64,000 bases of DNA from a virus (IMGVR_UViG_3300024058_000001:32001-96000); one strand, 5' to 3'. Positions 5,315 to 53,038 are shown, counted from the stretch's first letter. Notes: generated by a model not told the origin, from the sequence alone. Numbers and translations are program-made.

Positions 5315-5517
5315 TCTTGTGTACCTACAATAGTAATTAAGCCATATCTTTTGCAGTCTTCTCTTTGACAGAACATCAAAGGATTGCCAGTATAAGTATT
5401 ATTATTGACTAAGATATGGCTACATTCGATGCACTTCATTTTTATATTGTGACCGCTTAAGCCAGGTCTTATAACCTTAGTTTTAGGTAAATTTAAATGT
5501 CTATTTAGTTTCTTCAT
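5311..5517 (-). CDS. Small zinc-binding hypothetical protein
   Basis: CIEC...CQREDC. Confidence 0.5.
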   Translation of the reverse strand: MKKLNRHLNLPKTKVIRPGLSGHNIKMKCIECSHILVNNNTYTGNPLMFCQREDCKRYGLITIVGTQE

Positions 5518-5553
5518 TATTCATTATCTCCTGTTAATTGTATAGTTTCACAT

Positions 5554-6438
5554 TTAGGACAAATTATCTTGTACATGAATTTCTCCTCCATGTCCTTGTA
5601 CTTCATAGTATAAATAGTCTACTCTTACTCTATGATATTCCTTGCCCCATTTGTTTGATTCGCTTACTTCCATGAAGCGATTAAAGTTCTCTTTCGCTTC
5701 ATACACCCTAAATTGCGAAGGTGGATGTGCGCTAAAAAAGTGTATAAAATCAGGTAACTTGTCTATTGGTATTGTGGCCAATTTCTCATTATATTTTATT
5801 ACTGCTTCTGCTGGATAACCTAGCTTTGACAAATAATTCATTGCTCTACCATCTGCCTCTACTTCGGCACTTTTACTAAATTGTTGCTTAATATAAGGAG
5901 AGCTTACTTCAAAACCTGATAACATACCTGATGCTGCACCTGCAGCAGATCCTAAATATCCACCTGTTGCACTAAGTCCAATTTTTGCAATTTTGTTTAT
6001 TTTAAACTTTTTTCCCTTTTTACCTGATTGATAACGTAATGCAGTAGTATGTCCTATTTCATGAGCTAACACTGCAGCAAGCTCTGCTTTTGAATCTATA
6101 AAAGAAAATAGCCCTGTTGATATATAGATATAACCACCAGGAAAAGCAAATGCTTCTACTCTTGGTTCTTTTATTACAAAGAATTGCCAAGGTAGATGAG
6201 GGCGTTCACTTATCCTAGCGATATCTTTGCCCACTTTGGTTACATAATCATTAATTATTTCATCTTCAATAAATACGACATCTTTTTTAAATTGTTTACT
6301 TTGATCTACACCTGACCTAATTTCTTCTAAATCATACATATTAAGAGGAATATCATCACTAATAATACGCATTCTTTTATCTGTACATCCTAATAATAAA
6401 AAACTTACAATTAACATTACTAATAAAAGCATTCGCAT
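5554..6438 (-). CDS. M48-family zinc metallopeptidase lipoprotein (BepA/LoiP-like)
   Basis: Lipobox LLLGC; AFAFPGGYIYISTGL; ELAAVLAHEIGH; FSKSAEVEADG; FFSAHP. Confidence 0.9.
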   Translation of the reverse strand: MRMLLLVMLIVSFLLLGCTDKRMRIISDDIPLNMYDLEEIRSGVDQSKQFKKDVVFIEDEIINDYVTKVGKDIARISERPHLPWQFFVIKEPRVEAFAFPGGYIYISTGLFSFIDSKAELAAVLAHEIGHTTALRYQSGKKGKKFKINKIAKIGLSATGGYLGSAAGAASGMLSGFEVSSPYIKQQFSKSAEVEADGRAMNYLSKLGYPAEAVIKYNEKLATIPIDKLPDFIHFFSAHPPSQFRVYEAKENFNRFMEVSESNKWGKEYHRVRVDYLYYEVQGHGGEIHVQDNLS

Positions 6439-6440
6439 TA

Positions 6441-6701
6441 TTAGTATGCCTTATGTAATAAATCTATTAAATGTTGTATCTTTGTAAAAAAAGATGATTC
6501 TCCAGTATCTTGAATAATATAAGGACTAACCTGTCCATCTAATGTTAAATGAGAAGTAAGAGTTAATGTATATTCACCGTTAATTTCAGTTAATGTAATT
6601 GTAGGTACTAATAAGCTAGAGTCATATCGCCTACGATAATGTTCTTTTGCCTCTTCTAAAATAAAATCTGCTTTTCTTTGCATAAAAGTAATAAAATCCA
6701 T
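6441..6701 (-). CDS. Hypothetical protein
   Basis: 86-aa ORF, coupled to neighbour. Confidence 0.5.
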   Translation of the reverse strand: MDFITFMQRKADFILEEAKEHYRRRYDSSLLVPTITLTEINGEYTLTLTSHLTLDGQVSPYIIQDTGESSFFTKIQHLIDLLHKAY

Positions 6702-6913
6702 TATATAACACCCATCTCTTTGTTTAAATATTGTTCTATATCATTAAGAGTAATTAAAGAATCAGACAAATTATACCTATCATTCTGTCCAGGAATATCA
6801 AAGTCAAGACGTTCTAATTCTGCTATAGCATCGTGGAGTTGTCCCATTATCTTGAATATCTTATTACGCTTAATCCTAACAAATTTAGAAATAGATAGTT
6901 TTTTATTTTTCAT
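6701..6913 (-). CDS. Hypothetical protein
   Basis: 70-aa ORF with AGGAG RBS. Confidence 0.55.
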   Translation of the reverse strand: MKNKKLSISKFVRIKRNKIFKIMGQLHDAIAELERLDFDIPGQNDRYNLSDSLITLNDIEQYLNKEMGVI

Positions 6914-6967
6914 GATTTAGCTCCTGTAGTTTATTTTTGTAACTTATTCTACCACAATTTAGTACTA

Positions 6968-7507
6968 TCATACCTTATCCAAGCAACATTTCTTGTATTT
7001 TTTACCACTGCCACAAATACAAGGATCATTGCGTCCTATTCTTAATACATTCTTTATTGTTCCGCATATAGCATGATCAAAATAAAGAATACCATTTGTA
7101 TGATCGATCTCATGCTGTATAACAACTGCTTCTATATCTTCTACCATAGATTTATGTTCTTCTAATTCTTCGTCTTGGTATGTAAAAGTAACATGTTTAT
7201 ATCTATCTGTTTGCTTTGACTTCTTAGGAAAACTCAAACATCCTTCTTTAGAAAATACAAATGGTTCTTCTCTGCTTACTATCTGTGCATTACATGCAAA
7301 CAGCCATTGACCTGAAGGAAACTTTACTAAAAATGCTTGTCTATGTATCCCAATTTGTGGTGCAGATACTCCATATGCTCCTTCTTTAGGAAACATCCCC
7401 AGTAATGCTTCTTTTAAGTCTGTTGCTTGCTCCTTGGTTTCCACTGGTTTGCAAGTCTGTCGTAAGAATTCTTCGCTGTAAAGTGGGAACTGCTTTAGTT
7501 TTATCAC
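6968..7507 (-). CDS. def: Peptide deformylase with C-terminal SEC-C zinc motif
   Basis: AYGVSAPQIG, EGCLS, QHEIDH; C-terminus GRNDPCICGSGKKYKKCC. Confidence 0.93.
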   Translation of the reverse strand: MIKLKQFPLYSEEFLRQTCKPVETKEQATDLKEALLGMFPKEGAYGVSAPQIGIHRQAFLVKFPSGQWLFACNAQIVSREEPFVFSKEGCLSFPKKSKQTDRYKHVTFTYQDEELEEHKSMVEDIEAVVIQHEIDHTNGILYFDHAICGTIKNVLRIGRNDPCICGSGKKYKKCCLDKV

Positions 7508-7727
7508 GTATTACATCCTCGTTTTGCTGTTCATTTACTATATTCTTTACTCGTATAACGAATAATGTATTTCTAATTTGGGGATCGTTCTTTATCTTAT
7601 ATATTATTTTATTCGTCATATCTCTTATTTCATTAGCTTCTTCAAGTCTATTAAAATTAACATTGCACCCGACACACATAATGCATAATGCTAACAATAT
7701 AGTTAATACGTTAGTCTTCTTCATCAA
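7386..7727 (-). CDS. Putative lipoprotein
   Basis: Signal with lipobox-like CVGC; 3' end overlaps def by ~120 nt, so the C-terminus is uncertain. Confidence 0.5.
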   Translation of the reverse strand: MMKKTNVLTILLALCIMCVGCNVNFNRLEEANEIRDMTNKIIYKIKNDPQIRNTLFVIRVKNIVNEQQNEDVIRDKTKAVPTLQRRILTTDLQTSGNQGASNRLKRSITGDVS

Positions 7728-7913
7728 CAGAAAACTCAGTATCCAAGAACTTTTCTAAAAGCTCTTTTAAGTAATGTTGTTTTTCATATCCACAAAGTTT
7801 ATAATGCCGTCTTATATCTATCTTTAAATCATTAAGATCATTAAGATTTTTTTCCATCTTTTTTCTCCTTCACCTTTTTTTGATTAGCTTCTTCAAGTCG
7901 ATCAAAATTAACA
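7632..7913. repeat. 31-bp direct repeat (7632-7662 / 7883-7913)
   Basis: attagcttcttcaagtc(ta tt/ga tc)aaaattaaca, 2 mismatches. Confidence 0.8.
7711..7857 (-). CDS. Small hypothetical protein (not in ORF track)
   Basis: MEKNLNDLNDLKIDIRRHYKLCGYEKQHYLKELLEKFLDTEFSVDEED; AAGGAG RBS. Confidence 0.5.
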   Translation of the reverse strand: MEKNLNDLNDLKIDIRRHYKLCGYEKQHYLKELLEKFLDTEFSVDEED

Positions 7914-7930
7914 CTAATAGACTAACTAAA

Positions 7931-8485
7931 CTATGAATTAGGGTCAATCTCACATTTGCCTTTTTTATGATCCTCTTCAAACTTCTTATTGAATTTATCA
8001 AACAGCACTCTTTGGTCACGTATTTGTATGCACACATTTTTTATTACTGCATCTAAATCAATAAAATCTTCATCTGGAGGAGGTTTTGGTATTGAAGTTG
8101 CTACAAATACAATATCATTACCTTTACTTTTACGTGGTACATTCCACGCATCAAATTCTTTCATTCCTGGCAATATCTTGTAGAGTATCTTGCGTATATC
8201 TTCTAAGCTTAGATTAGCCATACCAAACTTATCCCATTTAATATCCTGTTTTAAGCATGCATCTAACCAGCCAATAACACGCTCTAAACCTTGAGGAAAT
8301 GCATAAGGAGACTGCCTAACAGCAGTCCATGCTAATGCCCCTGTAATATCTTTTCTAAAGGTAATACGTTTTTCTTTCCATGTACTGTTTTGTTGATTAG
8401 GTACATCTTTTAACACAGCTTTTATCTCCTTAAGTAAACTATCAGGATTCTTTATGTTTACAATTGGATATTTTTTTCTATTCAT
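7931..8485 (-). CDS. Hypothetical protein
   Basis: 184-aa ORF directly after the promoter at 8506-8534, with RBS. Confidence 0.7.
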   Translation of the reverse strand: MNRKKYPIVNIKNPDSLLKEIKAVLKDVPNQQNSTWKEKRITFRKDITGALAWTAVRQSPYAFPQGLERVIGWLDACLKQDIKWDKFGMANLSLEDIRKILYKILPGMKEFDAWNVPRKSKGNDIVFVATSIPKPPPDEDFIDLDAVIKNVCIQIRDQRVLFDKFNKKFEEDHKKGKCEIDPNS

Positions 8486-8505
8486 GTTTATCCTTCCTTA
8501 TTAGT

Positions 8506-8534
8506 AGTATAACACAGAAGACTGTACTTGTCAA
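8506..8534 (-). promoter_or_regulatory. Sigma70 promoter
   Basis: TTGACA-17nt-TATACT with extended -10 TG. Confidence 0.85.
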
Positions 8535-8797
8535 GCTACTATTATCCAAAAATTAGAATCTTTTGAGCTAAATCAATAGCCTGGTTTAAAAGAGTAAGTG
8601 TTATTCCCACAGCTTTTGGTGCTAACTTCAATAGTGACCATAACATGTGTAATCCTCCTTATAAAGGCTTTAATTTATCCTTGTTTGTCTTAAATTTATC
8701 TGTACGACCTGTTTTAAGCATATCTTGTATATCTTCTTTAATCATTTTAATAAGTTCTTGAATAAGTTCTTTAGGTGTATCAAAGACTATATGGCGT

Positions 8798-9166
8798 TCA
8801 TAAACTATGCGTTTCATTAGTGCCACCTTGTTTAAGCCGTATATGTGCAAATGCAGACGATTTATTATTAGACTTCGGTTTGTTATGTTTTCTTACAAAT
8901 TGCTTCGTTTTAGGCTTTTCAATAGCTTTTATATCAAGATTTGAATTCCTATATATGCTACCTTTATAGTTATCAGCACTACCACCTGGGCCATACATTA
9001 TGTCCAATGTTTGATTAAGATCCTTTGTCAAATTAAACCAATAATCAAATTTCTTTTTCCACTTCTTATAATGAGCAGGATATCTAAGCTTAATTAATTT
9101 CTCTTCTATTGCAATCCTGAGTTGATCATGTAATTGAGTATTAAATGATGTATGAGTTTTTTTCAT
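8798..9166 (-). CDS. Hypothetical basic protein
   Basis: 122-aa ORF. Confidence 0.55.
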   Translation of the reverse strand: MKKTHTSFNTQLHDQLRIAIEEKLIKLRYPAHYKKWKKKFDYWFNLTKDLNQTLDIMYGPGGSADNYKGSIYRNSNLDIKAIEKPKTKQFVRKHNKPKSNNKSSAFAHIRLKQGGTNETHSL

Positions 9167-9171
9167 AATGT

Positions 9172-11340
9172 TTATTCCACTGACCTATTTTCTAATCGAA
9201 ATCCAGTAACAGAATTTTCTACTTTAATATTACCATGTCGTATTCGTCCTAATATATTTCTAAAACATATACTACCCGAACCAAATTGAAATAATTGTAT
9301 TTTATAGTTTGTAAGAAGGAAAAATTTTATATCTTTAAAAGAAGCTATAGTTGCAACCAATGGTGTTTCATCTTCTGCGGTAGATGCAGCTAATTCTTGA
9401 CTAATGTACAAAGATTGAAATGCTTCTTCATCCCCTATCCCTGATATCTCTGAATCAACAAAAGTTGATGTAAGTACTGGCATTACTTTAACCCATGCAT
9501 TTAGCATTCTTTTAAAATCAATTTCATAATTAGGCCCTCCTAATGGAGCATCTAAGTCATCTAACAATACAATTAATGATGGTTGTAAAGTAAAATCACC
9601 TGTAGAAGGGCCAAAATTAATGGATTGGTTAAAACCCAAACCACCAAATCTATAGCCATCTTCTGTTTGAGTTACAGAGTCTTGAAATTCTGGTAAAAAA
9701 GAGTTTACAATTATATCTAATGCTGCCTGATTCTCTAAAAAAAATATTCCGATGTTTAAATTATTAGTCTGAGTATTTGCAATTGTAAAAGGAGAAGATG
9801 GATCAAGCGGTAATGTAGTAACTGATCTATCAAAACGTAATTGCATTTCTAGTATAAAAGTTCCTGCTATATCAGGATCTTCTATCTCTGTTAAACCTGC
9901 ACATACTCCTGATCCTTCTAAATCATCTGTATCACCATGTGCATAATCTTCTAATTCTTCATCAATAGTTACTTTAATGTCTTCGTGCCATTTAAAAAGA
10001 TTAAGATCAGTAATATCAAAACTAGGTTTACTTAATCCAGGAAAAACGACATCATCATGCAATTCTCTTAATGTATTACCACTTGCTGAAATTCCACCAT
10101 TTGGATCAAGTAAACTTGACACAAATACTATATTACCTTTAGGTTCTACAGGAGCTACGTTACCTTCAAGTCCTATGATAGAAAACGAATTACCTGTAGT
10201 AGTTGGAGTTCTACAAGAAAAAAGCTGTGGTTCTAATGCAGCAAAATTACCTTCTGCTAAAGAACTAGCCAAAGAAGTCATTTTAAATATTTTATTTGCA
10301 AGTGCTTTAACTGTGGGAACTGGTTCTCCTGGCAAAGTAACACCATTTAATATTTCCAGTTTTGCTTCAGTAGAATTAGTAAATTCTACAGATATTTCTG
10401 TAATAGAAGGAAAACTATCTAAACATGCTTGATTGGGATATGTTCTTTCAATTGGAATATTTAGTTTTTGAAACGTCATTAAACGCCACCACCCTTGATT
10501 TTCTTCTATTGCATCAAAGTTTACTGGCCCGTGTAATTGCTTTGCTGGTGGTTCAGCATCTAAAAGAGTTTGAATTTGTTCAGTTTCTGCTTTTACACGT
10601 ATTTGCAAATCAGTAGGAAAAATAGCTGTTCTTGTAAATACTAGACCAGGAAATTCAGGTAAAGTGGATTCAATTTCAAATCCCACATCACTAACACTAT
10701 AATACTCAAAAAATAGAGCACCAGGTACTGTATGACGTAAATCTTCAATATGAATTGCTCGTAAAGGTGTATTTGGTGGTAAAGTAGGAGAATTCGTTAC
10801 GTCTTCTTGATTCACACTATCTGGAAGTCTAAATGTTCCAATAACCGTTCCATCTTTATGTATATATGGTCTACCACGATCTATATCTGTCCATTCATCC
10901 TTAGCTTCATCATTAGGCCCAGGTTCTACAGGGTCTTGATTAGGATCAACACTAAAATAAGTAGATAATTCGGAGCCAATTACACTTAAAATCTTTTCAA
11001 CAGATTCCCGTAACTCAACTATATGTAATACTCGTACATTGTTCCCATCTATCTCTGAAAAATCTGTGAGAAATTCTCCTGCAATTCCAACCTGTATTTC
11101 TTCTAGTGTTCTTACTTGTTGTAGTTCTCGAATATGAACACCTTTAACTCTATCGGCTCCTATAAATTCAGGCCCACTAAATCCCAATGGGCCAGTCCTA
11201 AGAGGATCATCTGTCCATCGTGGTACAGGCAATCCATTATCGTCTGTCCCTAATGATCCTTGTTCAAAACCAATAGTTTCTTCTGCTATATCGCCAATTC
11301 GTGAATGACACGTAGGACAAAGTAAATCGAATGCAGCCAT
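9172..11340 (-). CDS. Tail-tip / receptor-binding protein
   Basis: Last gene of the tail module; repeated WTD...[KR]xxHIxELR motifs; acidic, beta-rich. Confidence 0.6.
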   Translation of the reverse strand: MAAFDLLCPTCHSRIGDIAEETIGFEQGSLGTDDNGLPVPRWTDDPLRTGPLGFSGPEFIGADRVKGVHIRELQQVRTLEEIQVGIAGEFLTDFSEIDGNNVRVLHIVELRESVEKILSVIGSELSTYFSVDPNQDPVEPGPNDEAKDEWTDIDRGRPYIHKDGTVIGTFRLPDSVNQEDVTNSPTLPPNTPLRAIHIEDLRHTVPGALFFEYYSVSDVGFEIESTLPEFPGLVFTRTAIFPTDLQIRVKAETEQIQTLLDAEPPAKQLHGPVNFDAIEENQGWWRLMTFQKLNIPIERTYPNQACLDSFPSITEISVEFTNSTEAKLEILNGVTLPGEPVPTVKALANKIFKMTSLASSLAEGNFAALEPQLFSCRTPTTTGNSFSIIGLEGNVAPVEPKGNIVFVSSLLDPNGGISASGNTLRELHDDVVFPGLSKPSFDITDLNLFKWHEDIKVTIDEELEDYAHGDTDDLEGSGVCAGLTEIEDPDIAGTFILEMQLRFDRSVTTLPLDPSSPFTIANTQTNNLNIGIFFLENQAALDIIVNSFLPEFQDSVTQTEDGYRFGGLGFNQSINFGPSTGDFTLQPSLIVLLDDLDAPLGGPNYEIDFKRMLNAWVKVMPVLTSTFVDSEISGIGDEEAFQSLYISQELAASTAEDETPLVATIASFKDIKFFLLTNYKIQLFQFGSGSICFRNILGRIRHGNIKVENSVTGFRLENRSVE

Positions 11341-31873: not shown

Positions 31874-32734
31874 TTAAACCCTAATTCGTTTATACGGGGA
31901 TAAACTCGTAAGTGCCCCCTCCGTTAGAGATTTTACATGTGCGCTATACGGAAAATCTCCATATGATTTAGGAAATCCTTCAGATGTTAACGACATCGCA
32001 CTTGATCCAGCAAATATTCCTTTTGTAGATAGAACAGCAGCAGCTACAATTCTTGCACATGCACTTCTTATTTCCCTTGGCAAAGATTCTAGATTTTCAT
32101 ATCCATAATCGTACTCAAGTTCGATATTTTGAAATCCTCTTAAAAATGTATAATTCCAAAAAGGTACTGCTTGATTTTCTAAGAATAAGATTCTAGGCGG
32201 GATAATCACAGTCCCTTTTGCCATATCAACAAATAAATCTGCTCTTTCGTATTGTAAAGTCGTATTATTAAAATTTGCTGTGTTACCACTTGCAACTTTT
32301 ACATCATCTGGAACAGTATCCGTTTCAGGAAATGTAAAAGGAGGCACTACTACATCATCAATAGGTTCTACTCCGCCCCTATTACCTACGTCTGTGCCTA
32401 GTGTGTCTATATTGTTTAAATGAAAAGGTCTTTTAAATTCAAACCATTGTACGGCTGGAATTAATCTTAAAATAGCTTTCCTTATAAATCTTATGGGTCT
32501 GTGGCGTAATACCATATTAGGCGTACCACTACCGTCATAAAATTCATTAGTAGTGGTCAGGTCAAAGTTCTCTCCAATGTATCTATCTATCTCTCTCTTA
32601 GCCCAAGGAATAAATTCAGTTTCTATAATCTTGTCTAGAGTAGTAGGCATATCTGAAACGTCTAATCCTGCCATCCACATTTTTGCGTCATCAATTGTGC
32701 AGTAATTAAAACCCATATCATTTTCCTTTTTCAA
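31874..32734 (-). CDS. Head-tail adaptor (gp6/gp15-like)
   Basis: Follows the capsid gene; YCTIDDAK...REIDRYIG...YDYGYENL..LPREIRSAC. Confidence 0.75.
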   Translation of the reverse strand: MKKENDMGFNYCTIDDAKMWMAGLDVSDMPTTLDKIIETEFIPWAKREIDRYIGENFDLTTTNEFYDGSGTPNMVLRHRPIRFIRKAILRLIPAVQWFEFKRPFHLNNIDTLGTDVGNRGGVEPIDDVVVPPFTFPETDTVPDDVKVASGNTANFNNTTLQYERADLFVDMAKGTVIIPPRILFLENQAVPFWNYTFLRGFQNIELEYDYGYENLESLPREIRSACARIVAAAVLSTKGIFAGSSAMSLTSEGFPKSYGDFPYSAHVKSLTEGALTSLSPYKRIRV

Positions 32735-32746
32735 ATTAGTTTTTTA

Positions 32747-32776
32747 GCGGGGAAAAGGTTTTACCCTTTCCCCCGC
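32747..32776 (-). other. Stem-loop after the capsid gene
   Basis: GCGGGG..AAAGG / CC.TTT.CCCCGC, followed by an A-tract on the coding strand. Confidence 0.75.
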
Positions 32777-32822: not shown

Positions 32823-33833
32823 TTAGGCTCCGACGTTTATGATTTTTCCCTGGAACGCCTCTGCGGTCAACTGCAGAACGGTAAACTCAGCAACTAAAGT
32901 ACGATAAGCGGATTGAAGTAAAGCAAGATCAATCGAAGATAGTGGCATTAAATCCACCATCTGGATTGCATTACCATCTTCAAGAACTGTCTTGTCATCA
33001 ATAACAAGAATAAAAGCATTACCCGCATCGGGAGTGATGTATCTTGAACCGATTACATCAACAACACCGAAAGGAGACAGCCAACGAGTAACCGAAATTC
33101 CCGCAGGAATATCAGCCATCGTGCCTGCACCAGCCTGGAAGAGTCTGTAAAAAGAACCCAACACAAGCTCGTTAAACTTCTGTAAGTCACGATAAGACAT
33201 GACTACAGCTTGAGGCTTACCACCCACCGTTACAATATTTTGTTCGACTGTAGTAATGTCGGACAGAGCTAAAGGAGAACCAGTATTATCAAGCACGTTA
33301 TCCGTGATTTGCTTTGCTAATCCATCGAATTGAAGACCAGTACCAGTGGAAGAATCTCCATTGATAATAGCCCATTCCTCCATGAGAGCAACGTTAAGCA
33401 TCTTTACTTTTACTTGATGTTTCTTAATGTCAGTGTAAGTTCCACCAGCCATTTGCTCGAAGAACGAAACATTAACGGTATCACCAAGAGAAGTATACGG
33501 AGCCGACCTAAACTTATAGTTAGGCTGACTTGCTTGAGGTAGTCCACCCTTTTCAAAAAATCCCTGTTCTGGAGCAGTACCACCCAAAAACAAATGTCCA
33601 GCAGAATCGGCTCCCGTTGAAACTGTGGGAGTCAATTGATACCAAGCATGGGCTTTTCCATTACCAGCGATTCGATTAAAACGATTACGTAAGGGAGTAT
33701 CAGTAGGAGCCATAATTGCCATTTCAGCCTGCAAGTCTTCACGGACTAGCAAAAGACCGCTAACATCTGTGGAAGAAATTGCTTTCTGAATGTCATTAAT
33801 AGCTTGCTCTACTATTTGCGCGTTATAATTCAT
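32823..33833 (-). CDS. Major capsid protein (HK97 fold)
   Basis: After the protease-scaffold; DTPLRNRF, EEWAIINGDS...FDGLAKQI; strong RBS; 336 aa. Confidence 0.9.
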   Translation of the reverse strand: MNYNAQIVEQAINDIQKAISSTDVSGLLLVREDLQAEMAIMAPTDTPLRNRFNRIAGNGKAHAWYQLTPTVSTGADSAGHLFLGGTAPEQGFFEKGGLPQASQPNYKFRSAPYTSLGDTVNVSFFEQMAGGTYTDIKKHQVKVKMLNVALMEEWAIINGDSSTGTGLQFDGLAKQITDNVLDNTGSPLALSDITTVEQNIVTVGGKPQAVVMSYRDLQKFNELVLGSFYRLFQAGAGTMADIPAGISVTRWLSPFGVVDVIGSRYITPDAGNAFILVIDDKTVLEDGNAIQMVDLMPLSSIDLALLQSAYRTLVAEFTVLQLTAEAFQGKIINVGA

Positions 33834-33889: not shown

Positions 33890-35821
33890 TTAAAGGGCTT
33901 TACCGAACTTAGCATCAAGCATCTTATTGACAACATTGTCTTTAAAACGCTCTTGATCGGGGGTCAACTTTGTTCCTTCTACACGCCATTTGGTTACAGT
34001 ATCAATATCTTTCTGTAGAGTATTATCTACTTTACCATCAGCATCTAGACTTTTTTCAATCTTGAACTTTCTCGGCTTAGGTTGACGCATTTGCTGTTCT
34101 ATCCCATCGAATCGCTTTCTCAGCGAATCCACTGCATCTACTACTTTTGATAGATCGTTCTGTGATCCATCGGCTTTCCTACTTCTTCCTGCTAAATAAC
34201 CTGCACCAGCAGCAGCGCCAACTTGGGCGCGACGACTACGAACTGCACGACCTGCAATATGCGTCATAGCTGCACGTGAACGTGCTACGTCTTTTACTCT
34301 AGATGCACCAGTTTTTACTTTCCCTGCCACACTTCTCGCTTGGCCTGGAACTTTACTAGCTGCACTACGAACTGCACCAACTGCGCGTTGTCCTACTGTG
34401 CGTCCTGCACTAATTGCGCGTTGTCCTAATTTACGACCTGCTCTAAGAGCTGCCATTGCAGCACTGCCTAAAGCTTTTTCTGTTGCTTCATCATCATCTT
34501 CATAATTCTTTTCTGTATCCTCATCGCCTTCTGGTTCCGTATCTTCATACGGATATGCACCTTCAGGATCTTGAGTTTGAGCATCTACAGTAGCGGGATG
34601 TTTACCAGGATATTTATCACCTTCGGAATCATGGCCATCTTTTTCGACCTCTTCTTCCGTTTCATCGTGATCTTCCTTTTCAAATTCTCCCTCTACTTCT
34701 ACATAATCAGCCTTTTCTGGATCGTCATCACCATATGGATAGTTGCCTTCGGCGTGTTGATTTTGTGGATCAACATCCGCAGCAGCTCCTGAATCTAAGG
34801 GATCAGTCTCCCCCAGGTCTGGATCTGATGTCGAACCTTTAGGCGTTCCTTTTGAACCCTCAATGGGTTTATAAGCACCTTCATATGCTTTGTCGATAAT
34901 ATCGGCAAGATTTGTGACAACCTCTACCAATGCATCGACTTTCTTATTCAATTCATCTATTTTCACGTTATTCCCTCCTCGGTAAACGTCTTTTACATGC
35001 GATTCAAATGCAGAACCTAATACTTCTTGAGCTTTGTCAAGTACTGCATCTGTTTCTTCAGTTACTAAATTATACTTCTCCATAGTTTCTAATGCCCGAA
35101 CTGCATGAACTTTATCTGGCATTGGAATTAATCTTTCCTTTGTTACTACTGAATCTTTAACAGACTTTCTAATAACACCAAAGTCGTCATCACTCAGTTT
35201 TTCTAATTGTTCTGTGTTTAATACTTTTCTAACCAACGAATCTGCTTTTTCTCTATGTTCCTTAACTTCTGTAAAAAGTGGATCGGTAGCTTCTGTTATA
35301 ACAACTTTCTTGATATCCTCAACAATTTCTGTTTGATAAGGTATACCATTAATGCTTTTTATTAAAGAAAAAGAACATCCAGGATTTGCAGGATTATCTA
35401 CTAGAGATAATTCATTAAGCTTATACTTGGTAATTCTACTAATATTTCTTGAACTACCAGTATCTAAGTCTTTAATTACTTCTTGTACCTTATTTACTGT
35501 TTGTCCACCAATAGAAAAACCATTCAAAATCCCTTCTTTAATCTTTTCCCATGTGTCACCTGCACCCTTCGATATATAGGCTTCTATCCAAATTTTCTTA
35601 GTATCATCATTTGGAGTAATTTCTATAGCCTTGCCTACCGCTTTGGCTTCGTGCATCTCACGGATATTTCCTTGCCATTTACTAAATGCTTCCTTGCTAC
35701 CATTATAGTCAACTATCTCGTTTTGTTTATCAATTTCCTCAGTAGTTGCCCAACCAGCGACTGTACGCTTTTCTGTATCTATTTTCTCAATAGGTACGTA
35801 CAAATTAAACTTAGTGCTCAT
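33890..35821 (-). CDS. Prohead protease (HK97/XkdF type) fused to scaffold, with a cationic insert
   Basis: NIREMH..KAVGK, GFSIGG, ELSLVDNPANP; acidic middle; coiled-coil C-terminus. Confidence 0.9.
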   Translation of the reverse strand: MSTKFNLYVPIEKIDTEKRTVAGWATTEEIDKQNEIVDYNGSKEAFSKWQGNIREMHEAKAVGKAIEITPNDDTKKIWIEAYISKGAGDTWEKIKEGILNGFSIGGQTVNKVQEVIKDLDTGSSRNISRITKYKLNELSLVDNPANPGCSFSLIKSINGIPYQTEIVEDIKKVVITEATDPLFTEVKEHREKADSLVRKVLNTEQLEKLSDDDFGVIRKSVKDSVVTKERLIPMPDKVHAVRALETMEKYNLVTEETDAVLDKAQEVLGSAFESHVKDVYRGGNNVKIDELNKKVDALVEVVTNLADIIDKAYEGAYKPIEGSKGTPKGSTSDPDLGETDPLDSGAAADVDPQNQHAEGNYPYGDDDPEKADYVEVEGEFEKEDHDETEEEVEKDGHDSEGDKYPGKHPATVDAQTQDPEGAYPYEDTEPEGDEDTEKNYEDDDEATEKALGSAAMAALRAGRKLGQRAISAGRTVGQRAVGAVRSAASKVPGQARSVAGKVKTGASRVKDVARSRAAMTHIAGRAVRSRRAQVGAAAGAGYLAGRSRKADGSQNDLSKVVDAVDSLRKRFDGIEQQMRQPKPRKFKIEKSLDADGKVDNTLQKDIDTVTKWRVEGTKLTPDQERFKDNVVNKMLDAKFGKAL

Positions 35822-43897: not shown

Positions 43898-44179
43898 TTA
43901 TATAATTCGTTCAGGCAACCAGGCTGAATATGCAGGTCTAACTCTTGGTGTATCTGATGCAATTTCGTTATCAGGTTGAGTAACCCTATTAGTCATCTGA
44001 TTTTGTTGGTGCTTTTGGCCGTGAACGATGTCCTCATTTTTCTTTTTTGGTCGTTTAATTCCTAAATCTTCTCTAACAAGTAAAAGTCCAGGAACATCTA
44101 TAGAAGTTATTTCTTTTCTAATAGTTTGAAGTTTTCCTAAATAATCTCTAAGTTGTTCTATGAATTCCAATTTGTTCAT
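43898..44179 (-). CDS. Small protein carrying a copy of the capsid protein N-arm
   Basis: IRKEITSIDVPGLLLVREDL vs capsid IQKAISSTDVSGLLLVREDL. Confidence 0.7.
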   Translation of the reverse strand: MNKLEFIEQLRDYLGKLQTIRKEITSIDVPGLLLVREDLGIKRPKKKNEDIVHGQKHQQNQMTNRVTQPDNEIASDTPRVRPAYSAWLPERII

Positions 44180-44846: not shown

Positions 44847-45803
44847 CTATTTAAAATAATCAAAACTAAAACGTCTACGTCCTTCTCTTGGGCGTATTTG
44901 ACGGCCATTAACTAAATAATTTCTATATGTTGCTGTATTAAGAACTTGATAAGTATTTGCTACTCTGCTAGAAACAATTTTTCCCTCATCAAATGCCCCT
45001 AACTTAGAATCAAAATAATAAACTAAATCGCCTGGTTTAAATCGACGAAATATTCTAAACTGTTTATCTATAGCATTATCTCTCTTACTTGTCTTTGAAC
45101 GTCTTTTACCAGCAGCATAGCCTGCTGCAGGCAATGCACTTATACCTGCTATACGCGCTGTTTTACCTGCAATTCTTCTTTTACCTGCACGTGTACCCAT
45201 ACTTTGTCTAAATGTTTCTGCTTTATACCTTTGTTTACGTCCTATATTACGTACCTTAACTCCTACTGAACCTAATTTACGTCCTATTGTAGAGACTGCA
45301 CTAGCTATTCCTTTTTTTGTATTTACATTTGCAGTTGTTTCAATTCCTCTTTCATCTGACATTACAACAGGAACCTTTTCATAGCCAAGTTCTTTAAGAG
45401 CTACAAATCTATGATGACCATCTGTTACCATTTTACCAGGTTTTCCATCATGGTCAATTTCGGTATAAACTAATGGTTTAATATCTCCACTAATTTTAAT
45501 AGCGTGTTTTATTTTGTCTACCTTGTTTCGGTCTAATGTTCTATTATATGGATTTGGAAGCAACTCAGAAATGTTAATTTCTTCTATTTTTATCTTTACC
45601 ATTCTTCCCCATTGACTATTTCCGCGATGCTCACTTCTAGGGCCAATGGCAGAAGATCCTTCACTCGAAGGATTAAAATTAAAACCTTCTGCTTCAGGCG
45701 GATTAGTGCTAATAGCAGGAAATCTATATTCCCGTGTTTCAGCCTTATTTATCTGCCTAGTTAAATCTCTTAGTTGAGTCCATGTTTTCATATTTGTTAT
45801 CAT
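44847..45803 (-). CDS. Multi-module protein: QLRD leader + ParB/Srx-like domain + cationic cassette + SH3/Tudor-like domain
   Basis: LLPNPYNR...IKPL...VTDGHHRFVALKELGYEKVPV; TKK-GIASAVSTIGRKL; FKPGDLVYY. Confidence 0.7.
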   Translation of the reverse strand: MITNMKTWTQLRDLTRQINKAETREYRFPAISTNPPEAEGFNFNPSSEGSSAIGPRSEHRGNSQWGRMVKIKIEEINISELLPNPYNRTLDRNKVDKIKHAIKISGDIKPLVYTEIDHDGKPGKMVTDGHHRFVALKELGYEKVPVVMSDERGIETTANVNTKKGIASAVSTIGRKLGSVGVKVRNIGRKQRYKAETFRQSMGTRAGKRRIAGKTARIAGISALPAAGYAAGKRRSKTSKRDNAIDKQFRIFRRFKPGDLVYYFDSKLGAFDEGKIVSSRVANTYQVLNTATYRNYLVNGRQIRPREGRRRFSFDYFK

Positions 45804-45813
45804 CTTGTAATCT

Positions 45814-48114
45814 TTAAATTATTCGTGTTTTAGTTCTAGCAGCAAGATTTCTAACCCTTCCCAAATCTCGATATGTTTTGGATCTTGTAGCTGCCTGTGC
45901 TCTGCCAATTTGTTTAATTCTTCCTAATTGTTGAACCTGCTGTCCCATCATTTGCCCAATTTGTTTTCTTTCTCTAACTATTCTATTGTATTGTGCATTA
46001 AGTGAAGGCTTCTTTATTTTTTGTCCTATTGAACGTATTTTACGTCCTACTGCACGTGCTGCACTGCCTATACCTTTTTCTGTATCTTCTGTAATACCAT
46101 TCCAACCGCATCGTTTTCTTAAATTCTTTAATTCCTTTTTAATATTTTGTAATTCCATTACCTTTTTTCTTTTCTTACGTCCGTATGCTGACTTCATCCT
46201 ATATCCCATCATTCTAGCTCCTGCAGTTCCTACCTTTATACCCAAATTTCTTCTACGAGCACCTTTTGGCAATTTTCCTGCTGCGATACGAGACAAAGCT
46301 CCACCAGGACGTTTTAGTTCCGCTTTAGCACCAGCGTCAAGACCTATATTTATTAATTTATTACCTACACGTCTAACAACAGATCCCACTTTAGATCGTA
46401 AACCTTTTTCTGTATCACCATTTTTCAAATTATCTAGTTTCTTTTTAACATCTGTAATAGATACTACCTTATAACTTTTCTTAGGTTTACCAAACGCGCC
46501 TAAACTATGTGCAAGATAACTACCTTCTGCAACAGGAAGGGCCACTCTTGCTACTCGTCCCACACGTGTTCTTCCAAATTTAGCTCCTGCACGTTGGGCT
46601 GATAATCCTGCTCTACTTCTTACTCCGCGTGTTCCTTTCCATCCTGCTTTTGTTCCTGAAATTAACTTAGGAGCTAACTTTCTGCCTATTGCTAACGCTC
46701 CACGTCCTGCAGCTACCAAAGCAGCTCCATATTTTTCTACATCCTCTGTATCATCCATATCTTTTTCTATATCTGCCATTTGGTCAACTTTATCAAAAAG
46801 CTCCATAATATCATTTAGTTCTTCAGGAACTAAATACTTTATCAGTTCCTGTTGTTCTACTGGAGATGCAAATTCCAACATGTCAATGATCTCAGCAATA
46901 CTAAAATCTTTAGATAAATCCTTTGTTTGTGCACTTTTTTCTCTAAATACTCTGCCTAACAATCCTGATCCAGGTGTGTGAGCAACTGTTGTTACAGGTT
47001 TTGATGCACCAATGGCATCTCTTATTTTGCCAGTTCTAAAATCTTTAATTCCTCCACCTAAAGTTTGAGTTGTATATACTCTGTTTACTGGAATTTTTCC
47101 TACGTAAGTCTTTATTTTACCTCCAAGTTGCCTTAGCCTCTTTATACCAGCACGTCTAGTCGCTGGATGTGCTAACGCAGCAATAGCACCAAGACCTGCA
47201 GCAGCACCCGCAATACGGCCAGCTTTACCACGTTTAGAACCTTGCTCTGCTTTATTAATAATTTCCATATGACCTTTAGGATCGTCACACCATATTTTTT
47301 GTAATGAACCATCTGAACTTACCTTAGTAACAGAAACACCTTTCATTGCAGGTAAACCAAATGTTGGCTCAACTGGTTGTCCTGGTTGTCTTAATGGCCC
47401 AGGCACTTGCGCTTCTTCTGGTTCTACAGGTGCTTCAGGTACTTCAGGAACACCACCAGGTTCAACACTAGTATCTACTTGTCCTTTACAATGTGGACAA
47501 ACTACTTGTAAGGGTTTTGCTTCTTCTGGAGTTTCCGCAGATTCCTCAACATCTTCTTGAGGTTCCTCTTCTGGAAGTTCTTCTTCTCCTTCAGATCCAC
47601 CAAATTCTCCTGTTTCTAAATCTTCAGGAACTTCCTCTGCAGATTCGTCTTGAGGCTCTTCAATTACTTCCCCATTTTCATCAACAACATCTTCTTCTTT
47701 TTCTTCCTCTTCGGGCAAACGCTCTTGTGGGTCATTAGCGTTAGTTGTAGCTATTTGTTCACCAGGTTGTTCAGCTTGTCCTTGCATTTCTTGATCTGTC
47801 TGAGGATTTATATTATCTTCTACAGGTTTATCTAATACCTGTTCAGCCGTAGATTCTACCACTTCTTTTTCTTTAGGTGGTAACGCATTTTCTAATTCTT
47901 CTAACTCTTCTGGAGACATATTAGCCAATATGCCCTTTTTAATTTCATTATCAAACTCTTGTTTGCCAACATCGATTCTACCCTTGCTCGTAAATACATG
48001 AACGATTTTCTTTTGGGTTTCAGTTGTAACTTCACCCTTTTTAATAGCGTCCAAGTCAGCTTGGGTAAAGTCAAATCGTTGACCCTTTACCACGATTGTA
48101 TACACTTTACTCAT
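45814..48114 (-). CDS. Putative internal head polyprotein (acidic region + four cationic cassettes)
   Basis: Glu/Pro-rich N-half; cassettes after IINK, DVEK, DTEK, DTEK. Confidence 0.7.
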   Translation of the reverse strand: MSKVYTIVVKGQRFDFTQADLDAIKKGEVTTETQKKIVHVFTSKGRIDVGKQEFDNEIKKGILANMSPEELEELENALPPKEKEVVESTAEQVLDKPVEDNINPQTDQEMQGQAEQPGEQIATTNANDPQERLPEEEEKEEDVVDENGEVIEEPQDESAEEVPEDLETGEFGGSEGEEELPEEEPQEDVEESAETPEEAKPLQVVCPHCKGQVDTSVEPGGVPEVPEAPVEPEEAQVPGPLRQPGQPVEPTFGLPAMKGVSVTKVSSDGSLQKIWCDDPKGHMEIINKAEQGSKRGKAGRIAGAAAGLGAIAALAHPATRRAGIKRLRQLGGKIKTYVGKIPVNRVYTTQTLGGGIKDFRTGKIRDAIGASKPVTTVAHTPGSGLLGRVFREKSAQTKDLSKDFSIAEIIDMLEFASPVEQQELIKYLVPEELNDIMELFDKVDQMADIEKDMDDTEDVEKYGAALVAAGRGALAIGRKLAPKLISGTKAGWKGTRGVRSRAGLSAQRAGAKFGRTRVGRVARVALPVAEGSYLAHSLGAFGKPKKSYKVVSITDVKKKLDNLKNGDTEKGLRSKVGSVVRRVGNKLINIGLDAGAKAELKRPGGALSRIAAGKLPKGARRRNLGIKVGTAGARMMGYRMKSAYGRKKRKKVMELQNIKKELKNLRKRCGWNGITEDTEKGIGSAARAVGRKIRSIGQKIKKPSLNAQYNRIVRERKQIGQMMGQQVQQLGRIKQIGRAQAATRSKTYRDLGRVRNLAARTKTRII

Positions 48115-48250: not shown

Positions 48251-48454
48251 TCATTTTTTAATTCGCCTCTTAGCCAGCATATGCCCATGCAATCTGTTTG
48301 ATATATCATTGCTTATAGGAATTATTTCATAGCCTTTATCTTCTAATTCAAAAATTAATTCAGCAGTGAAACATTGGAATTCATCACCGTTAACTATATC
48401 TCTAAAAAGCTTAACTATTTTAGCTTTTTCGTTAATTTCCAGACGTATTTTCAT
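48251..48454 (-). CDS. Hypothetical protein
   Basis: 67-aa ORF in operon. Confidence 0.45.
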   Translation of the reverse strand: MKIRLEINEKAKIVKLFRDIVNGDEFQCFTAELIFELEDKGYEIIPISNDISNRLHGHMLAKRRIKK

Positions 48455-48818
48455 TTTTCTTAATTACTCTTTTCTTATTTGTATAAGGATTAACTAAACC
48501 TTTTTCTATCATTATATCATTAACAGATTTTTTGCTGTTATCTAAATATAAAAATGCAATATAACGGTCATGATATTTTCCTGGCTTCAAAGATTTCAAC
48601 ATGATTTCTTTATTTAGTATTGTTTCTTCTAAATATTTTTTTGCAGCTAAAGCCTTTTCTAAATTCTTTTTATCTTTTAATTCGTATGAATCAATACCTG
48701 CAAATCGAATTTTAATAGTACGAACAATCCTAAATCCTAAATCTACGGCTACTACAACTGTATCTCCATCAACAATTCTAGTGACCATCGCGTTATATTT
48801 AAACATTTTTTCCTCCAT
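48432..48818 (-). CDS. Thermonuclease (SNase-like)
   Basis: RIVDGDTV..VDLGF...IRFAGIDSYE...GKYHDRYIA...VNDIMIEKGL. Confidence 0.88.
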   Translation of the reverse strand: MEEKMFKYNAMVTRIVDGDTVVVAVDLGFRIVRTIKIRFAGIDSYELKDKKNLEKALAAKKYLEETILNKEIMLKSLKPGKYHDRYIAFLYLDNSKKSVNDIMIEKGLVNPYTNKKRVIKKNENTSGN

Positions 48819-50121
48819 TAGCTAGTTTTACAGCAGCAGGAATATCTATAATTCCTCTTCCTTGTTCACGATCAGCATATCCTATACCTTTAGCTGTTGC
48901 CCTTAAAAACATTTTTACCTTTTCGCCTCTATTCCTAGACTTCGGTAATTTTGCAGCTTCTATTAATAAGGCAGCAGCACCTGCAACATGAGGAGTTGCC
49001 ATAGAAGTTCCAGACATTTTTTGAAACATTGTATTATTACTGTCCACAACAGTACATTTATCTACTTTTTGATCTGCTGTTTTAACAGATGTAATACCAT
49101 CTCCATAAGGACATCCATGTTCCGCTTTAATACCACCACCAGGAGCTACAACATCAGGCTTACTTAAATTTCGGTTCCTATCTATAACAGGGCCACGTGA
49201 ACTATACGTTGGTATCCTGTTTATTTGATCAACCGAACCTACTGTTATAACTTTTTCTGCCACACCTGGAGATGATATTGTGTCGGGTCTTGGCCCTTCA
49301 TTACCTGCAGCAACAACTACAACAATTCCTTCTTCTGCTAATCTGTTGGCTTCCCGTGACATGGCATCATTTGCATGACCACCGCCACCAAGACTCATGG
49401 AAATAACATCTGCGCCCTGACTAGCTGCCCAAGACATACCTCTAATTATTCTATCTGTTGTATTGCGTCCTGATGCAGCAAGAACTTTTGCATCAATTAA
49501 CGCAACTTTTGGAGCTACACCTTTATAGGTAGAATCATTACTTGCGACTATACCCGCGCAATGCGTACCATGCCCAACTTCGTCTAATTTCCTTGGATAT
49601 AATTTGTTTTTAATTTGATTAAATAATGGAAAATAACTTTTACCTGTAAAATCTTGCCTTGCTACTACTTTTCCTTTTAAACTTGGATGATTATCATTTA
49701 TACCAGTATCTATGATAGCTACTTTTACGCCTTCACCTTCGTATCCAGCACCATGAAGATTAAAAGCACCGCATTGATTCACAGCTTTGTTCATCATAGT
49801 GTGTACTTCGACTACTTGTTCTATTTCTACATTTAAAGAATTGCTAATTCGTAGAATTTGTTTTTCTGATAAATAAGTAGGGAATTCAACAACTATGGCA
49901 TTAATACGTTTATGAACTTGAAGTATCTTCCCGCCTAATTCTTTTAATTGTTTAAAATCGAAACCAATCTTTTTAAGATATCGATAAACAAGAAATAATA
50001 GAACAAACCCCAATATAGGATGATCTGCAAAAACAGTTTTTGCTATTTTACCTACTTTTAGATAAAAAAAATATCTATTTGTAAGTAACTTTTTATCGAG
50101 GGGTTGTTGATATAAACTCAT
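48799..50121 (-). CDS. Subtilisin-like S8 serine protease with N-terminal TM and propeptide
   Basis: AIIDTGI, GHGTHCAGIVA, AAGNEG, SGTSMATPHVAGAAALL. Confidence 0.95.
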   Translation of the reverse strand: MSLYQQPLDKKLLTNRYFFYLKVGKIAKTVFADHPILGFVLLFLVYRYLKKIGFDFKQLKELGGKILQVHKRINAIVVEFPTYLSEKQILRISNSLNVEIEQVVEVHTMMNKAVNQCGAFNLHGAGYEGEGVKVAIIDTGINDNHPSLKGKVVARQDFTGKSYFPLFNQIKNKLYPRKLDEVGHGTHCAGIVASNDSTYKGVAPKVALIDAKVLAASGRNTTDRIIRGMSWAASQGADVISMSLGGGGHANDAMSREANRLAEEGIVVVVAAGNEGPRPDTISSPGVAEKVITVGSVDQINRIPTYSSRGPVIDRNRNLSKPDVVAPGGGIKAEHGCPYGDGITSVKTADQKVDKCTVVDSNNTMFQKMSGTSMATPHVAGAAALLIEAAKLPKSRNRGEKVKMFLRATAKGIGYADREQGRGIIDIPAAVKLANGGKNV

Positions 50122-50971: not shown

Positions 50972-51182
50972 TTTCTATATCCTCATTCTTATTTGTACTA
51001 GCGTTTTCTCTAGTACTTTCATCCAATTTTACTATATCACGATATAAATCCCAAGTGTAGTCGCATATTGCGTCTACTTGTTCGGGTGTAATATTTTTAG
51101 TATGAATCCTTGAAGTTGCTTCGCAAACATCACGCCATTGTTCTGGAGCTTTTTCTGGTAAATTATTAAGATCAATTCTCAT
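50961..51182 (-). CDS. Hypothetical protein
   Basis: 73-aa coupled ORF. Confidence 0.55.
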   Translation of the reverse strand: MRIDLNNLPEKAPEQWRDVCEATSRIHTKNITPEQVDAICDYTWDLYRDIVKLDESTRENASTNKNEDIENGQ

Positions 51183-53038
51183 TATTTGCGCCTCAAACTT
51201 CTAAGAGTTTTAATACCTTTAAGTTTTCGTCCCATTTTAAACAATGCTATGGAAATAGGACGTTCAATTGGTTTTAAAAATTTTAATTTTGGTAATTTAG
51301 TAATTCCTCTTAATACTCTAGACGCACTAAATAAACCAACACCTAAAATTTCATTAGGTTTAATACCCAATGCTGCTAAAGTAAAAGCACTTCCTATTAC
51401 TCCTATAGCAGCATCAGAACCAAGATCGCCAAATATGCCTACTGTAGAACTAACAACTTTTGCAGTATTTCCTGCCGTACCTCTTACTATTCCTTTACCA
51501 ATATTAGTCAACTTTCTTTCGGCTCTATTAACAGAATTATTAGCCTGTGCATTAACCGATGCATCTGATAATCTAGATATGCGTTGTTCACGCCGTTGGC
51601 TTTGTCTCTGCTGTCGTCGTGTAGCAGGTTCAGGAGCTTTAGGAATTGTATCTTGTTTTTTACCTCCGCGCCCTGCCCAACCTCGACGTGCAGCTTCTGC
51701 ATGTCTAACGGCATCTCCAATCCAACCTTTTTCTACAGTTAATTTATCTAGTTTATCATAAATAATCTCAAAACTTTTTTTATGTTTAAAATATTGAATT
51801 TGACGTTCTCTGTTTTCTGCTGCACCTCTAGTAGCAAATTTTTCTTTGCGTCCATCAGAGAAATGTAATGCATATCCACTATCTTCTCTACGTATTACTT
51901 TGTCTACTCTAAGAAGTTGTTGTTCAGAATCGGATGCTTTTCTGGAAGGGTCAATAGAAGACAAAAGATGTTGTGCTTCTTCTAAGATAGGAGTAACTAA
52001 TTCGTCTGTATCTCTCTCCGTAATGATTCCCTGAATCTGACCTCTTGTTTGTAATTCTTCTAAATTATGAATAAGTTCTACTAATTCTTGTACTACTTGT
52101 CCAAGCCGTATTTTTTCTGTAGAAGCTTCGTTGCCAGGAAGTCCATCAGGAGGATTACTGTGCATATTGGGATAATCTGTAAGATTTTGACCACTATACT
52201 CTTTCCTTACTTTTTCTTTACCTTTTTCTCTAGGATTTACTGCAGACGCTGCTGCATCTTTTTTAGTTTCTTGTTCCTGATCTCCCTTGACTGACGGAAT
52301 AACATCTAAAATATTATTTAATTCTTTCTTTTCTTTGTCATTCAATGAATCAGATAATTTTTTCTTTTCTTTTTCAGATAGTTGGCCCAATTCTCTTAAA
52401 ACATTTGCAACATAATTGCCATCATCTTCAGGAGTACTAATTTGTTTCAAAAATTTTTGTGGGGGTTCTGGCTGTCTACCCTTAGGTTTAGCCCGCCTTA
52501 ACCTAGAAAGTAATATACCACTAGCAGCAATTCCAACCGCCCATTTCATTCGTGGGCTTTTAACAGCATGTACGACTCGCTGACCAGCACGACCAACACT
52601 TTCTGCAGCCTTAATTCCTCTTTGAACAACTTTCGCGCCTGCTTTTACACCTCTAATTCCCGCTGCAACTGTACGAATAACAGGCTTTGCAATTTGTATA
52701 GCTGTCGCTGCACCTAATGATAAAAGCGCAGTTCGACCTACCCAAGCTGTTCCTCGCGCTCCTCTTGCAGCTTCTGCATGTCTAGCATTATCTCCAAACC
52801 AACCACGTTCTTTTTGTACTTTTAATGATTTACTTTGACTTAAAGAATATTGAATACTTGTATTTGCAACATTACGAGTGCCTCTAGGTTTTTTGTTAGA
52901 ACTTGTCACTTGTTTGTTTTCTCTTGTATCCACAAGAATCTTATTAATTTCATCTCGCGTTACAATCTTCACGCTCTTAGTATACTTTTTACTAAGTGCG
53001 ATATCTAATTGTTTATTTCTTTCATCATCAATAAGCAT
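51182..53038 (-). CDS. Putative internal head polyprotein with two GWxGDxxRHAEAAR cationic cassettes
   Basis: VQK-ERGWFGDNARHAEAARG and VEK-GWIGDAVRHAEAARRGW; RERQIQYFKH mini-domain. Confidence 0.65.
   Translation of the reverse strand: MLIDDERNKQLDIALSKKYTKSVKIVTRDEINKILVDTRENKQVTSSNKKPRGTRNVANTSIQYSLSQSKSLKVQKERGWFGDNARHAEAARGARGTAWVGRTALLSLGAATAIQIAKPVIRTVAAGIRGVKAGAKVVQRGIKAAESVGRAGQRVVHAVKSPRMKWAVGIAASGILLSRLRRAKPKGRQPEPPQKFLKQISTPEDDGNYVANVLRELGQLSEKEKKKLSDSLNDKEKKELNNILDVIPSVKGDQEQETKKDAAASAVNPREKGKEKVRKEYSGQNLTDYPNMHSNPPDGLPGNEASTEKIRLGQVVQELVELIHNLEELQTRGQIQGIITERDTDELVTPILEEAQHLLSSIDPSRKASDSEQQLLRVDKVIRREDSGYALHFSDGRKEKFATRGAAENRERQIQYFKHKKSFEIIYDKLDKLTVEKGWIGDAVRHAEAARRGWAGRGGKKQDTIPKAPEPATRRQQRQSQRREQRISRLSDASVNAQANNSVNRAERKLTNIGKGIVRGTAGNTAKVVSSTVGIFGDLGSDAAIGVIGSAFTLAALGIKPNEILGVGLFSASRVLRGITKLPKLKFLKPIERPISIALFKMGRKLKGIKTLRSLRRK

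Follow-up and report, generated by a model that had tools for sequence, protein, structure and literature searches.

Basic proteins packed together with phage DNA have been well studied in few phages, T4 being the clearest case, and their evolution and route to high copy number are poorly understood. In adenovirus, a eukaryotic virus with a different capsid lineage and a cysteine protease, the Arg-rich DNA-condensing peptides pVII and pre-mu are made as precursors that are not fused to a scaffold, and are freed in the capsid by the viral maturation protease. Antimicrobial peptide precursors carry an acidic propiece of near-matching charge directly before the cationic peptide, with a basic-residue processing site between the two. 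The internal proteins of T4 are cut at L/I-x-E by the gp21 protease, which is unrelated to S78. These proteins (IPI, IPII and IPIII) are basic, enter the prohead via the scaffold core and are trimmed by the prohead protease; about 1000 copies stay within the packaged DNA, where they contact its phosphates, and they are injected (PMC3012670).

The locus described here lies in a window of 64,000 nucleotides (IMGVR_UViG_3300024058_000001:32001-96000), the whole stretch of DNA that was analyzed, taken from the 104,771-bp (about 105 kb) contig of an uncultured phage with nearly all genes on the minus strand. The protease-scaffold gene and its surroundings comprise the following features.

33890..35821, minus strand: prohead protease-scaffold fusion gene, ORF of 643 aa (Pfam Peptidase_S78, PHROG 9427)
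35342..35821, minus strand: S78 serine protease domain, aa 1-160 (PHROG match, invariant residues, AlphaFold2)
34475..34861, minus strand: hyper-acidic disordered linker, approximately aa 321-449 (composition; AlphaFold2 coil, pLDDT about 30-36)
34175..34474, minus strand: cationic cassette, aa 450-549, 100 residues (composition scan; disordered in AlphaFold2)
34458..34483, minus strand: junction box T-E-K↓A-L-G-S-A-A, common to the cassettes of a 766-aa protein and of a ParB protein (here and below the arrow marks the junction)
34366..34446, minus strand: 33-nt tandem repeat in the cassette, 2.5 copies (TRF score 106, 79% matches)
33890..34174, minus strand: conserved helical scaffold tail, aa 550-643 plus the stop codon (alignment; AlphaFold2)
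32823..33833, minus strand: major capsid protein gene, SU10_MCP family, directly downstream of the protease-scaffold gene

The 643-aa protein passed the curated threshold of PF04586 (Peptidase_S78; 22.6 bits, cutoff 21), and its residues 5-157 matched the head maturation protease PHROG 9427 at 9.5e-39. H57 and S103 (the latter in GFSIGG) are invariant in 15 homologues and are, from the sequence alignment alone, the candidate catalytic His and Ser. AlphaFold2, run on a 15-sequence alignment, predicted a beta-rich fold of moderate confidence for the protease domain (pLDDT 64-76), a helical region after it that ends at residue 316, an extended stretch lacking structure at residues 317-555 (pLDDT about 30-42) and tail helices at 558-579, 600-615 and 621-639 (pLDDT up to 82). 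The tail begins after an invariant Lys, K549, with the conserved start xxGSENDLSK. The conservation of this helical C-terminal tail in homologues and the capsid protein gene next to it indicate that the gene is a protease-scaffold fusion; the portal and large terminase genes lie 6 kb and 18 kb upstream, respectively. The same N-terminal protease, acidic linker and helical tail are found in the S78 protease-scaffold fusions of PHROG 9427 and its relatives, a layout common to more than 100 metagenomic homologues and to Streptomyces phage capsid maturation proteases. All of these but one, however, lack a 100-aa cationic cassette, and their linkers are much less acidic.

The acidic linker of the window protein (129 aa) contains D23, E24, K9 and no R, giving a net charge of -38. 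The cassette, which lies between this linker and the helical scaffold tail, contains R16, K6, D1, E0, G14 and A26, with a net charge of +21. The initial annotation had described a tract with about 22 K/R and one D between an acidic stretch and a coiled-coil tail, and both its count and its placement agree with these results. AlphaFold2 gave no confident structure for the linker and the cassette, and the latter is predicted to be disordered (pLDDT 30-42). A Lys closes the junction on both sides (TEK↓ALGS... and ...GRSRK↓ADGS). The unit of the 33-nt repeat encodes 11 residues, AGRxxGQRAxx, and is present as a direct repeat (D1) at 82%.

T4 internal proteins are encoded by separate small genes and carry a short N-terminal capsid targeting sequence, whereas the cassette is embedded inside the protease-scaffold; it is a disordered Arg/Gly/Ala tract bounded by Lys and has no sequence similarity to them. 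In place of an N-terminal targeting sequence, L/I-x-E sites and a gp21-type U9 protease, the locus has an internal position, Lys-Gly/Ala junctions and an S78 protease. The cassette may, by analogy, work like the T4 internal proteins, but it is not a member of that family. Its likeness to the adenovirus core peptides lies in release from an Arg-rich precursor, which is predicted for the cassette, and involves no homology, and the likeness to antimicrobial peptide precursors is one of analogy only, the setting here being the inside of a virus head. We found no description of a scaffold-borne polycationic module in the literature. The cassette is a variant on a known theme, that of protease-processed internal head proteins and protease-scaffold fusions, limited to a small uncultured clade.

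The distribution of the cassette was determined among 124 homologues of the protease-scaffold found in a search of 5.8 billion proteins. It is present only in the window protein (P0001) and in P0002, and absent from 55 of the 57 closest homologues. P0002 is encoded on the 4.8-kb contig L001, is 77% identical to the window protein and has its cationic tract at the same site. None of 80 related IMG/VR loci has a comparable cassette in the protease ORF. The homologue in the cultured Streptomyces phage Teutsch has the acidic linker only, and in the remaining aligned sequences the acidic linker runs directly into the invariant Lys equivalent to K549, which in relatives is mostly preceded by [T/V/I]-[K/Q] (VKK↓, IKK↓, TKK↓, IQK↓). 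Since the other homologues pass from the acidic linker to the invariant Lys without a cassette, the latter is, as judged from the alignment, a derived, lineage-specific insertion bounded by Lys on both sides. This is the clean indel between Lys sites that the initial annotation had proposed to look for among the closest homologues, and the region is missing from nearly all relatives rather than constant among them. Because only two phages carry it, the scaffold cassette is evidently dispensable for this scaffold family.

Searches of Pfam, PHROG and the ESM Atlas with the cassette and its sister proteins returned nothing usable (best weak scores: PF03566, E 0.26; LPD14, E 0.058; Atlas, 0.81-0.84). 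Residues 280-766 of the 766-aa protein, used as query in a word-indexed search, returned only the self-match. An exhaustive search with a profile of six aligned cassettes, covering 1.84 billion representatives, returned only the three window proteins themselves and two eukaryotic repeat proteins that are unrelated. Among cultured phages, megablast with 20 kb gave no match. By these searches, the cassette family is undetectable outside a narrow phage lineage. Four distant protease-scaffold homologues (P0074, P0076, P0079 and P0080) have an Arg-rich patch of 25-30 aa after an Asp-rich run and before the scaffold helices, hinting that other lineages, too, have an acid/base dipole at this position.

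The acidic linker has a net charge of -38 in the window protein and -41 in P0002, whereas the whole linkers of five close cassette-less relatives range from -7 to -15, and all those measured from -7 to -23. The total linker charge of the two carriers stays within the family range, which from these counts is charge compensation. These features fit best with a protease-released polycationic head peptide that would neutralize DNA and be supplied in scaffold copy number, a reading to which we give a probability of roughly 40%. Through its scaffold tail the whole protein would enter the procapsid at the copy number of a scaffold, and the adjoining acidic linker, enlarged to about -38, would mask the +21 cassette until assembly. 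At each end of the cassette, the S78 protease encoded in cis would then cleave behind the Lys of the [T/V]-[E/K]-K↓[G/A] junction. As the acidic and scaffold fragments left the head, an Arg-rich peptide of about 10 kDa would remain on the incoming DNA as counter-ion and would probably be co-injected. Cleavage, retention and DNA binding are what we infer here, over and above the observed anatomy, indel status, edge homology, rapid turnover and charge compensation.

Cutting after Lys or Arg is known for HK97-type proteases, as at K103/S104 in HK97 (PMC10275583), and a positive P1 residue has been reported for phi12 (PMC8569155); by this precedent the Lys junctions are putative protease sites. 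For the fate of the peptide the precedent is T4, with its basic, scaffold-targeted internal proteins that are trimmed by the prohead protease and touch DNA phosphates (PMC3012670). Several points count against this reading. Lys-Ala is all that the right-hand junction, S-R-K↓A-D-G, has in common with the left-hand motif; a protease with Lys or Arg at P1 might shred a peptide with 22 K/R; and a few hundred cassette copies would, on our estimate, neutralize only a few per cent of about 210,000 DNA phosphates. The presence of the scaffold cassette in just two phages and the marginal similarity of whole cassettes weigh in the same direction. If the peptide is retained on DNA, it would be a compact, testable phage counterpart of the adenovirus core peptides, and could also be a simple tag to load polycations or cargo into heads. 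In this phage the most abundant internal head protein appears to have received a copy of a disordered Arg-rich module together with an acidic mask of its own, and the close cassette-less relatives provide a natural comparison.

A wider version of the released-peptide reading, to which we would give little credence as yet, holds that this lineage loads its head by electrostatic exchange. Disordered Arg-rich cassettes, each masked by acidic residues, would dock cargo on the acidic scaffold linker; cleavage at the Lys junctions would let the acidic pieces exit, with incoming DNA replacing them as counter-ion, and the cassettes would end as a protamine-like coat on the packaged, later injected, genome. 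A cassette copied into the scaffold would then have reached hundreds of copies per head by an evolutionary shortcut.

The charge distribution could also reflect an electrostatic assembly or cargo-loading element which acts within the scaffold and is then degraded and expelled with it, although we consider this unlikely. Such a cassette would, rather doubtfully, pair with the acidic linkers of neighbouring scaffolds and with cargo that is both acidic and cationic, for example the 766-aa protein; the supposed outcome, condensation of the scaffold core or co-recruitment of cargo, is equally doubtful. Acidic and cationic blocks indeed adjoin both in the scaffold and in the 766-aa protein (N-terminal part -49, C-terminal part +66), the two blocks are both predicted to be disordered, the acidic linker is kept in all relatives, and the Arg-rich patch of the four distant homologues likewise follows an acidic run. 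Most relatives, however, assemble without the cassette, and charge is almost fully compensated along one and the same chain, which speaks for masking rather than for pairing between molecules.

The second carrier allows the turnover of the cassette to be followed. Over 4.8 kb, the window and L001 show DNA identities of 0.85-1.0 in 60-nt windows; only within approximately 34199-34495, that is, over the cassette, does identity fall to 0.13-0.52, before returning to 0.95. Third-codon-position identity is 0.86-0.88 and amino-acid identity 88-96% in the flanks, compared with 0.40 and 33%, with 37 gap columns, in the cassette. The divergence is thus extreme and indel-rich between phages that are otherwise 94% identical. 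The L001 copy holds different repeats, with 12-nt units, one of them at 95% matches. As each copy holds its own tandem repeats, much of the divergence can, on the sequence, be put down to slippage-driven turnover; an alternative source may be replacement by a different copy of the cassette. Both copies keep the start TEK↓G/A-I/L-G-S and the end GY[LF]AGR..[RK]K. L001 also has about 400 extra bases (approximately 3800-4384) between the capsid gene and the next, forming part of a 194-aa ORF, and the window counterpart (approximately 32717-32762) is without them.

Such turnover raises the possibility, itself quite improbable in our judgement, that the cassette is a tolerated low-complexity expansion, a functionless Arg/Gly/Ala tract produced by replication slippage in a disordered linker and offset by acidic substitutions. 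The 33-nt repeat of the window copy, the different 12-nt repeats of L001 and the indel-rich divergence are what such an origin would leave, and the cassette is rare, unstructured and matches no known family. The composition of the two copies, however, argues against it. Both remain strongly cationic (+21 in the window, with R:K 16:6, and +28 in L001, with R:K 23:6) despite a third-position identity of 0.40 against 0.88 in the flanks, whereas the proteome contains 8.5% K and 4.7% R; an Arg/Gly/Ala-rich composition has been kept in both diverged copies against an AT mutational bias. Slippage at this site should give a Lys-rich tract, since relatives' linkers rely mostly on K (18-23 residues) and have few R or none (0-4). 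In-situ growth of the small Lys patch of the relatives is unlikely too, the cassette being Arg-based and carrying the junction box of the 766-aa gene. A foreign origin, considered on GC content, was rejected: the cassette has a GC content of 0.51 and a GC3 of 0.16, the same GC3 as the rest of the genome. Because of this match the cassette is, on codon usage, native, with GC-rich codon positions 1 and 2 held by selection on Arg, Gly and Ala. Even a merely tolerated expansion would show a scaffold linker absorbing and charge-compensating a +21 insertion.

The edges of the cassette also speak against slippage alone, their start and end motifs being conserved, common to the cassettes of other head genes and excessively identical in codons. 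In a whole-genome scan, comparable tracts were confined to head-module genes, namely a ParB_N fusion, the 766-aa protein (four) and a 618-aa protein (one or two).

45093..45311, minus strand: ParB cassette, aa 165-237 of a 318-aa protein, between ParB_N and the C-terminal domain
45817..46074, minus strand: cassette b4 of the 766-aa protein, which comes nearest to the start of the scaffold cassette
46162..46404, minus strand: cassette b3 of the 766-aa protein, which starts DTEK↓GLRS
46477..46731, minus strand: cassette b2 of the 766-aa protein, which starts DVEK↓YGAAL and contains GRKL
46936..47241, minus strand: cassette b1 of the 766-aa protein, the most weakly related one, which resembles a 334-aa protein of locus L006
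52475..52795, minus strand: cationic Gly/Ala-rich segment of the 618-aa protein, a possible distant member with more hydrophobic stretches

An extra candidate at 5932-6033 was rejected as part of a 294-aa predicted lipoprotein with a HEIGH zinc-metalloprotease motif (5554-6438, minus strand), which had been flagged by the charge scan and has no cassette.

At the start of the scaffold cassette, the 26-mers 34458-34483 and 46058-46083 are identical at 23 of 26 positions, and 8 of the 9 codons for identical residues shared with b4 are the same (4.0 expected from phage codon usage, p=0.006). The L001 cassette start is closer to b4 (33 of 36 nt; 10 of 11 codons, p=0.002) than to its own orthologue, and the ParB and b4 starts have 62 nt in common at 79%. 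The 18-nt junction box occurs four times. The scaffold cassette has the start block [D/E]-x-[T/V]-[E/K]-K↓G/A-[IL]-[GA]-S-A ... G-R-K-[LI] of the in-genome cassette family. Motifs were counted in the proteome of 174 genes (32,653 aa). GRK[LI] occurs 5 times, always in cassette carriers, and 4 of these lie 11-16 residues past the junction Lys; [TVI][EKQ]K[GA][ILV] occurs 10 times, 4 of them directly preceding cassettes and one within the capsid protein, at residues 15-19; and G[YF]xAG[RK] occurs 3 times, two of which close the scaffold and ParB cassettes. The resemblance of the start at the DNA level and of the end to that of the ParB-gene cassette, both noticed in the initial annotation, are thus borne out.

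Over the whole cassette the evidence is thinner. Smith-Waterman z values against composition-matched shuffles were 3.8 for the scaffold with ParB, 3.5 with b1, 3.2 with b2 and 3.4 with b4, that is, 3.2-3.8 for four of its six partners, 1.6 for b3 and 2.35 for the 618-aa segment; most other cassette pairs were below significance. Composition-corrected BLASTP ranked the other cassette carriers first, yet at E 0.12-0.6, and hidden Markov models of the first 35 cassette residues, built leaving one out, never recovered the left-out cassette. The kinship with the ParB-fusion and 766-aa cassettes is, by these comparisons, real but restricted to the edges, and the similarity of whole cassettes is marginal. 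The similarity proposed earlier therefore survives the shuffles only marginally over full length, where BLASTP and the profiles fail, and is clear at the edges, where codon identity exceeds expectation. The further proposal that a cassette family has spread between genes is weakened: the edge motifs are common to several genes, but there is no match outside the lineage, and much of each cassette comes from local tandem duplication and not from transfer. On the reading favoured here, the module was inserted at the conserved Lys that divides the hypervariable acidic linker from the scaffold tail; its ends derive from the same module as the ParB-fusion and 766-aa cassettes, and its interior then grew by tandem duplication of the 11-codon unit.

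The related locus L006 bears on the order of these events. Its scaffold (P0009) has no cassette, and its ParB_N protein, only 124 aa long, has none either; Gly/Ala/Arg tracts are nonetheless present in its 334-, 849- and 203-aa proteins, between terminase and portal. Since L006 has cationic tracts elsewhere though its scaffold is without one, the cassettes in other head genes are, from this comparison, older than the scaffold insertion. In these three L006 proteins (4661-10612) there are four cationic stretches, each after K↓GGPGSG(R/P), a junction that differs from the DTEK↓GIGS of the window phage and is also Lys-Gly. Modules are shuffled among head-module proteins of the two phages (51182-53038, minus strand, in the window; 4661-7210 and 10001-10612 in L006). 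The block FSDGRKE.F..RG.AENRERQIQYFKH is internal in the 618-aa protein of the window and forms the N-terminus of the separate 203-aa protein in L006, and the motif GW.GD..(R/G)HAEAAR occurs in two copies in the window phage and one in the L006 849-aa protein. In the window, the region 48432-50121 (minus strand), between the terminase and portal genes and among cassette-bearing proteins, holds genes for a subtilisin-like S8 peptidase (PF00082, 1e-60) whose N-terminal segment is hydrophobic and for a homologue of staphylococcal nuclease (PF00565) that carries the motif IEK↓GL.

A peptide released in the head, ejected ahead of or with the DNA and perturbing the host envelope, on the analogy of an antimicrobial peptide freed from its anionic propiece, is very improbable: the order of acidic propiece and cationic peptide, the 11-residue repeat, the hydrophobic Gly/Ala-rich stretches of the 618-aa protein and of some sister cassettes, where they lie at the ends, and a hydropathy periodicity peaking at 100 degrees (power 59.8, where shuffles reach a maximum of 33.9 ± 11.4) would suit it, but this signal exceeds shuffles by only about 2 SD and is missing from the P0002 copy (37.4 against 31.4 ± 10.6). 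AlphaFold2 predicts coil, the hydrophobic face would consist mostly of Ala, Gly and Ser, large hydrophobic residues being few, and the Arg spacing is irregular.

Some further observations concern the capsid protein gene. The motif at residues 15-19 of its product, of the form [TVI]-x-K↓A, is conserved in the relative L002. A 93-aa ORF at 43898-44179 (minus strand) repeats the N-terminal arm of the capsid protein, including nine identical residues, GLLLVREDL, which are preceded by a Lys-containing motif in both (IRK↓EITS in the 93-aa ORF and IQK↓AISS in the capsid protein). In the relative L005 (9769-11746), the capsid gene is shortened (297 aa) and is separated from a 42-aa ORF by a LAGLIDADG homing-endonuclease gene, suggesting that a mobile element has inserted in or beside the capsid gene.
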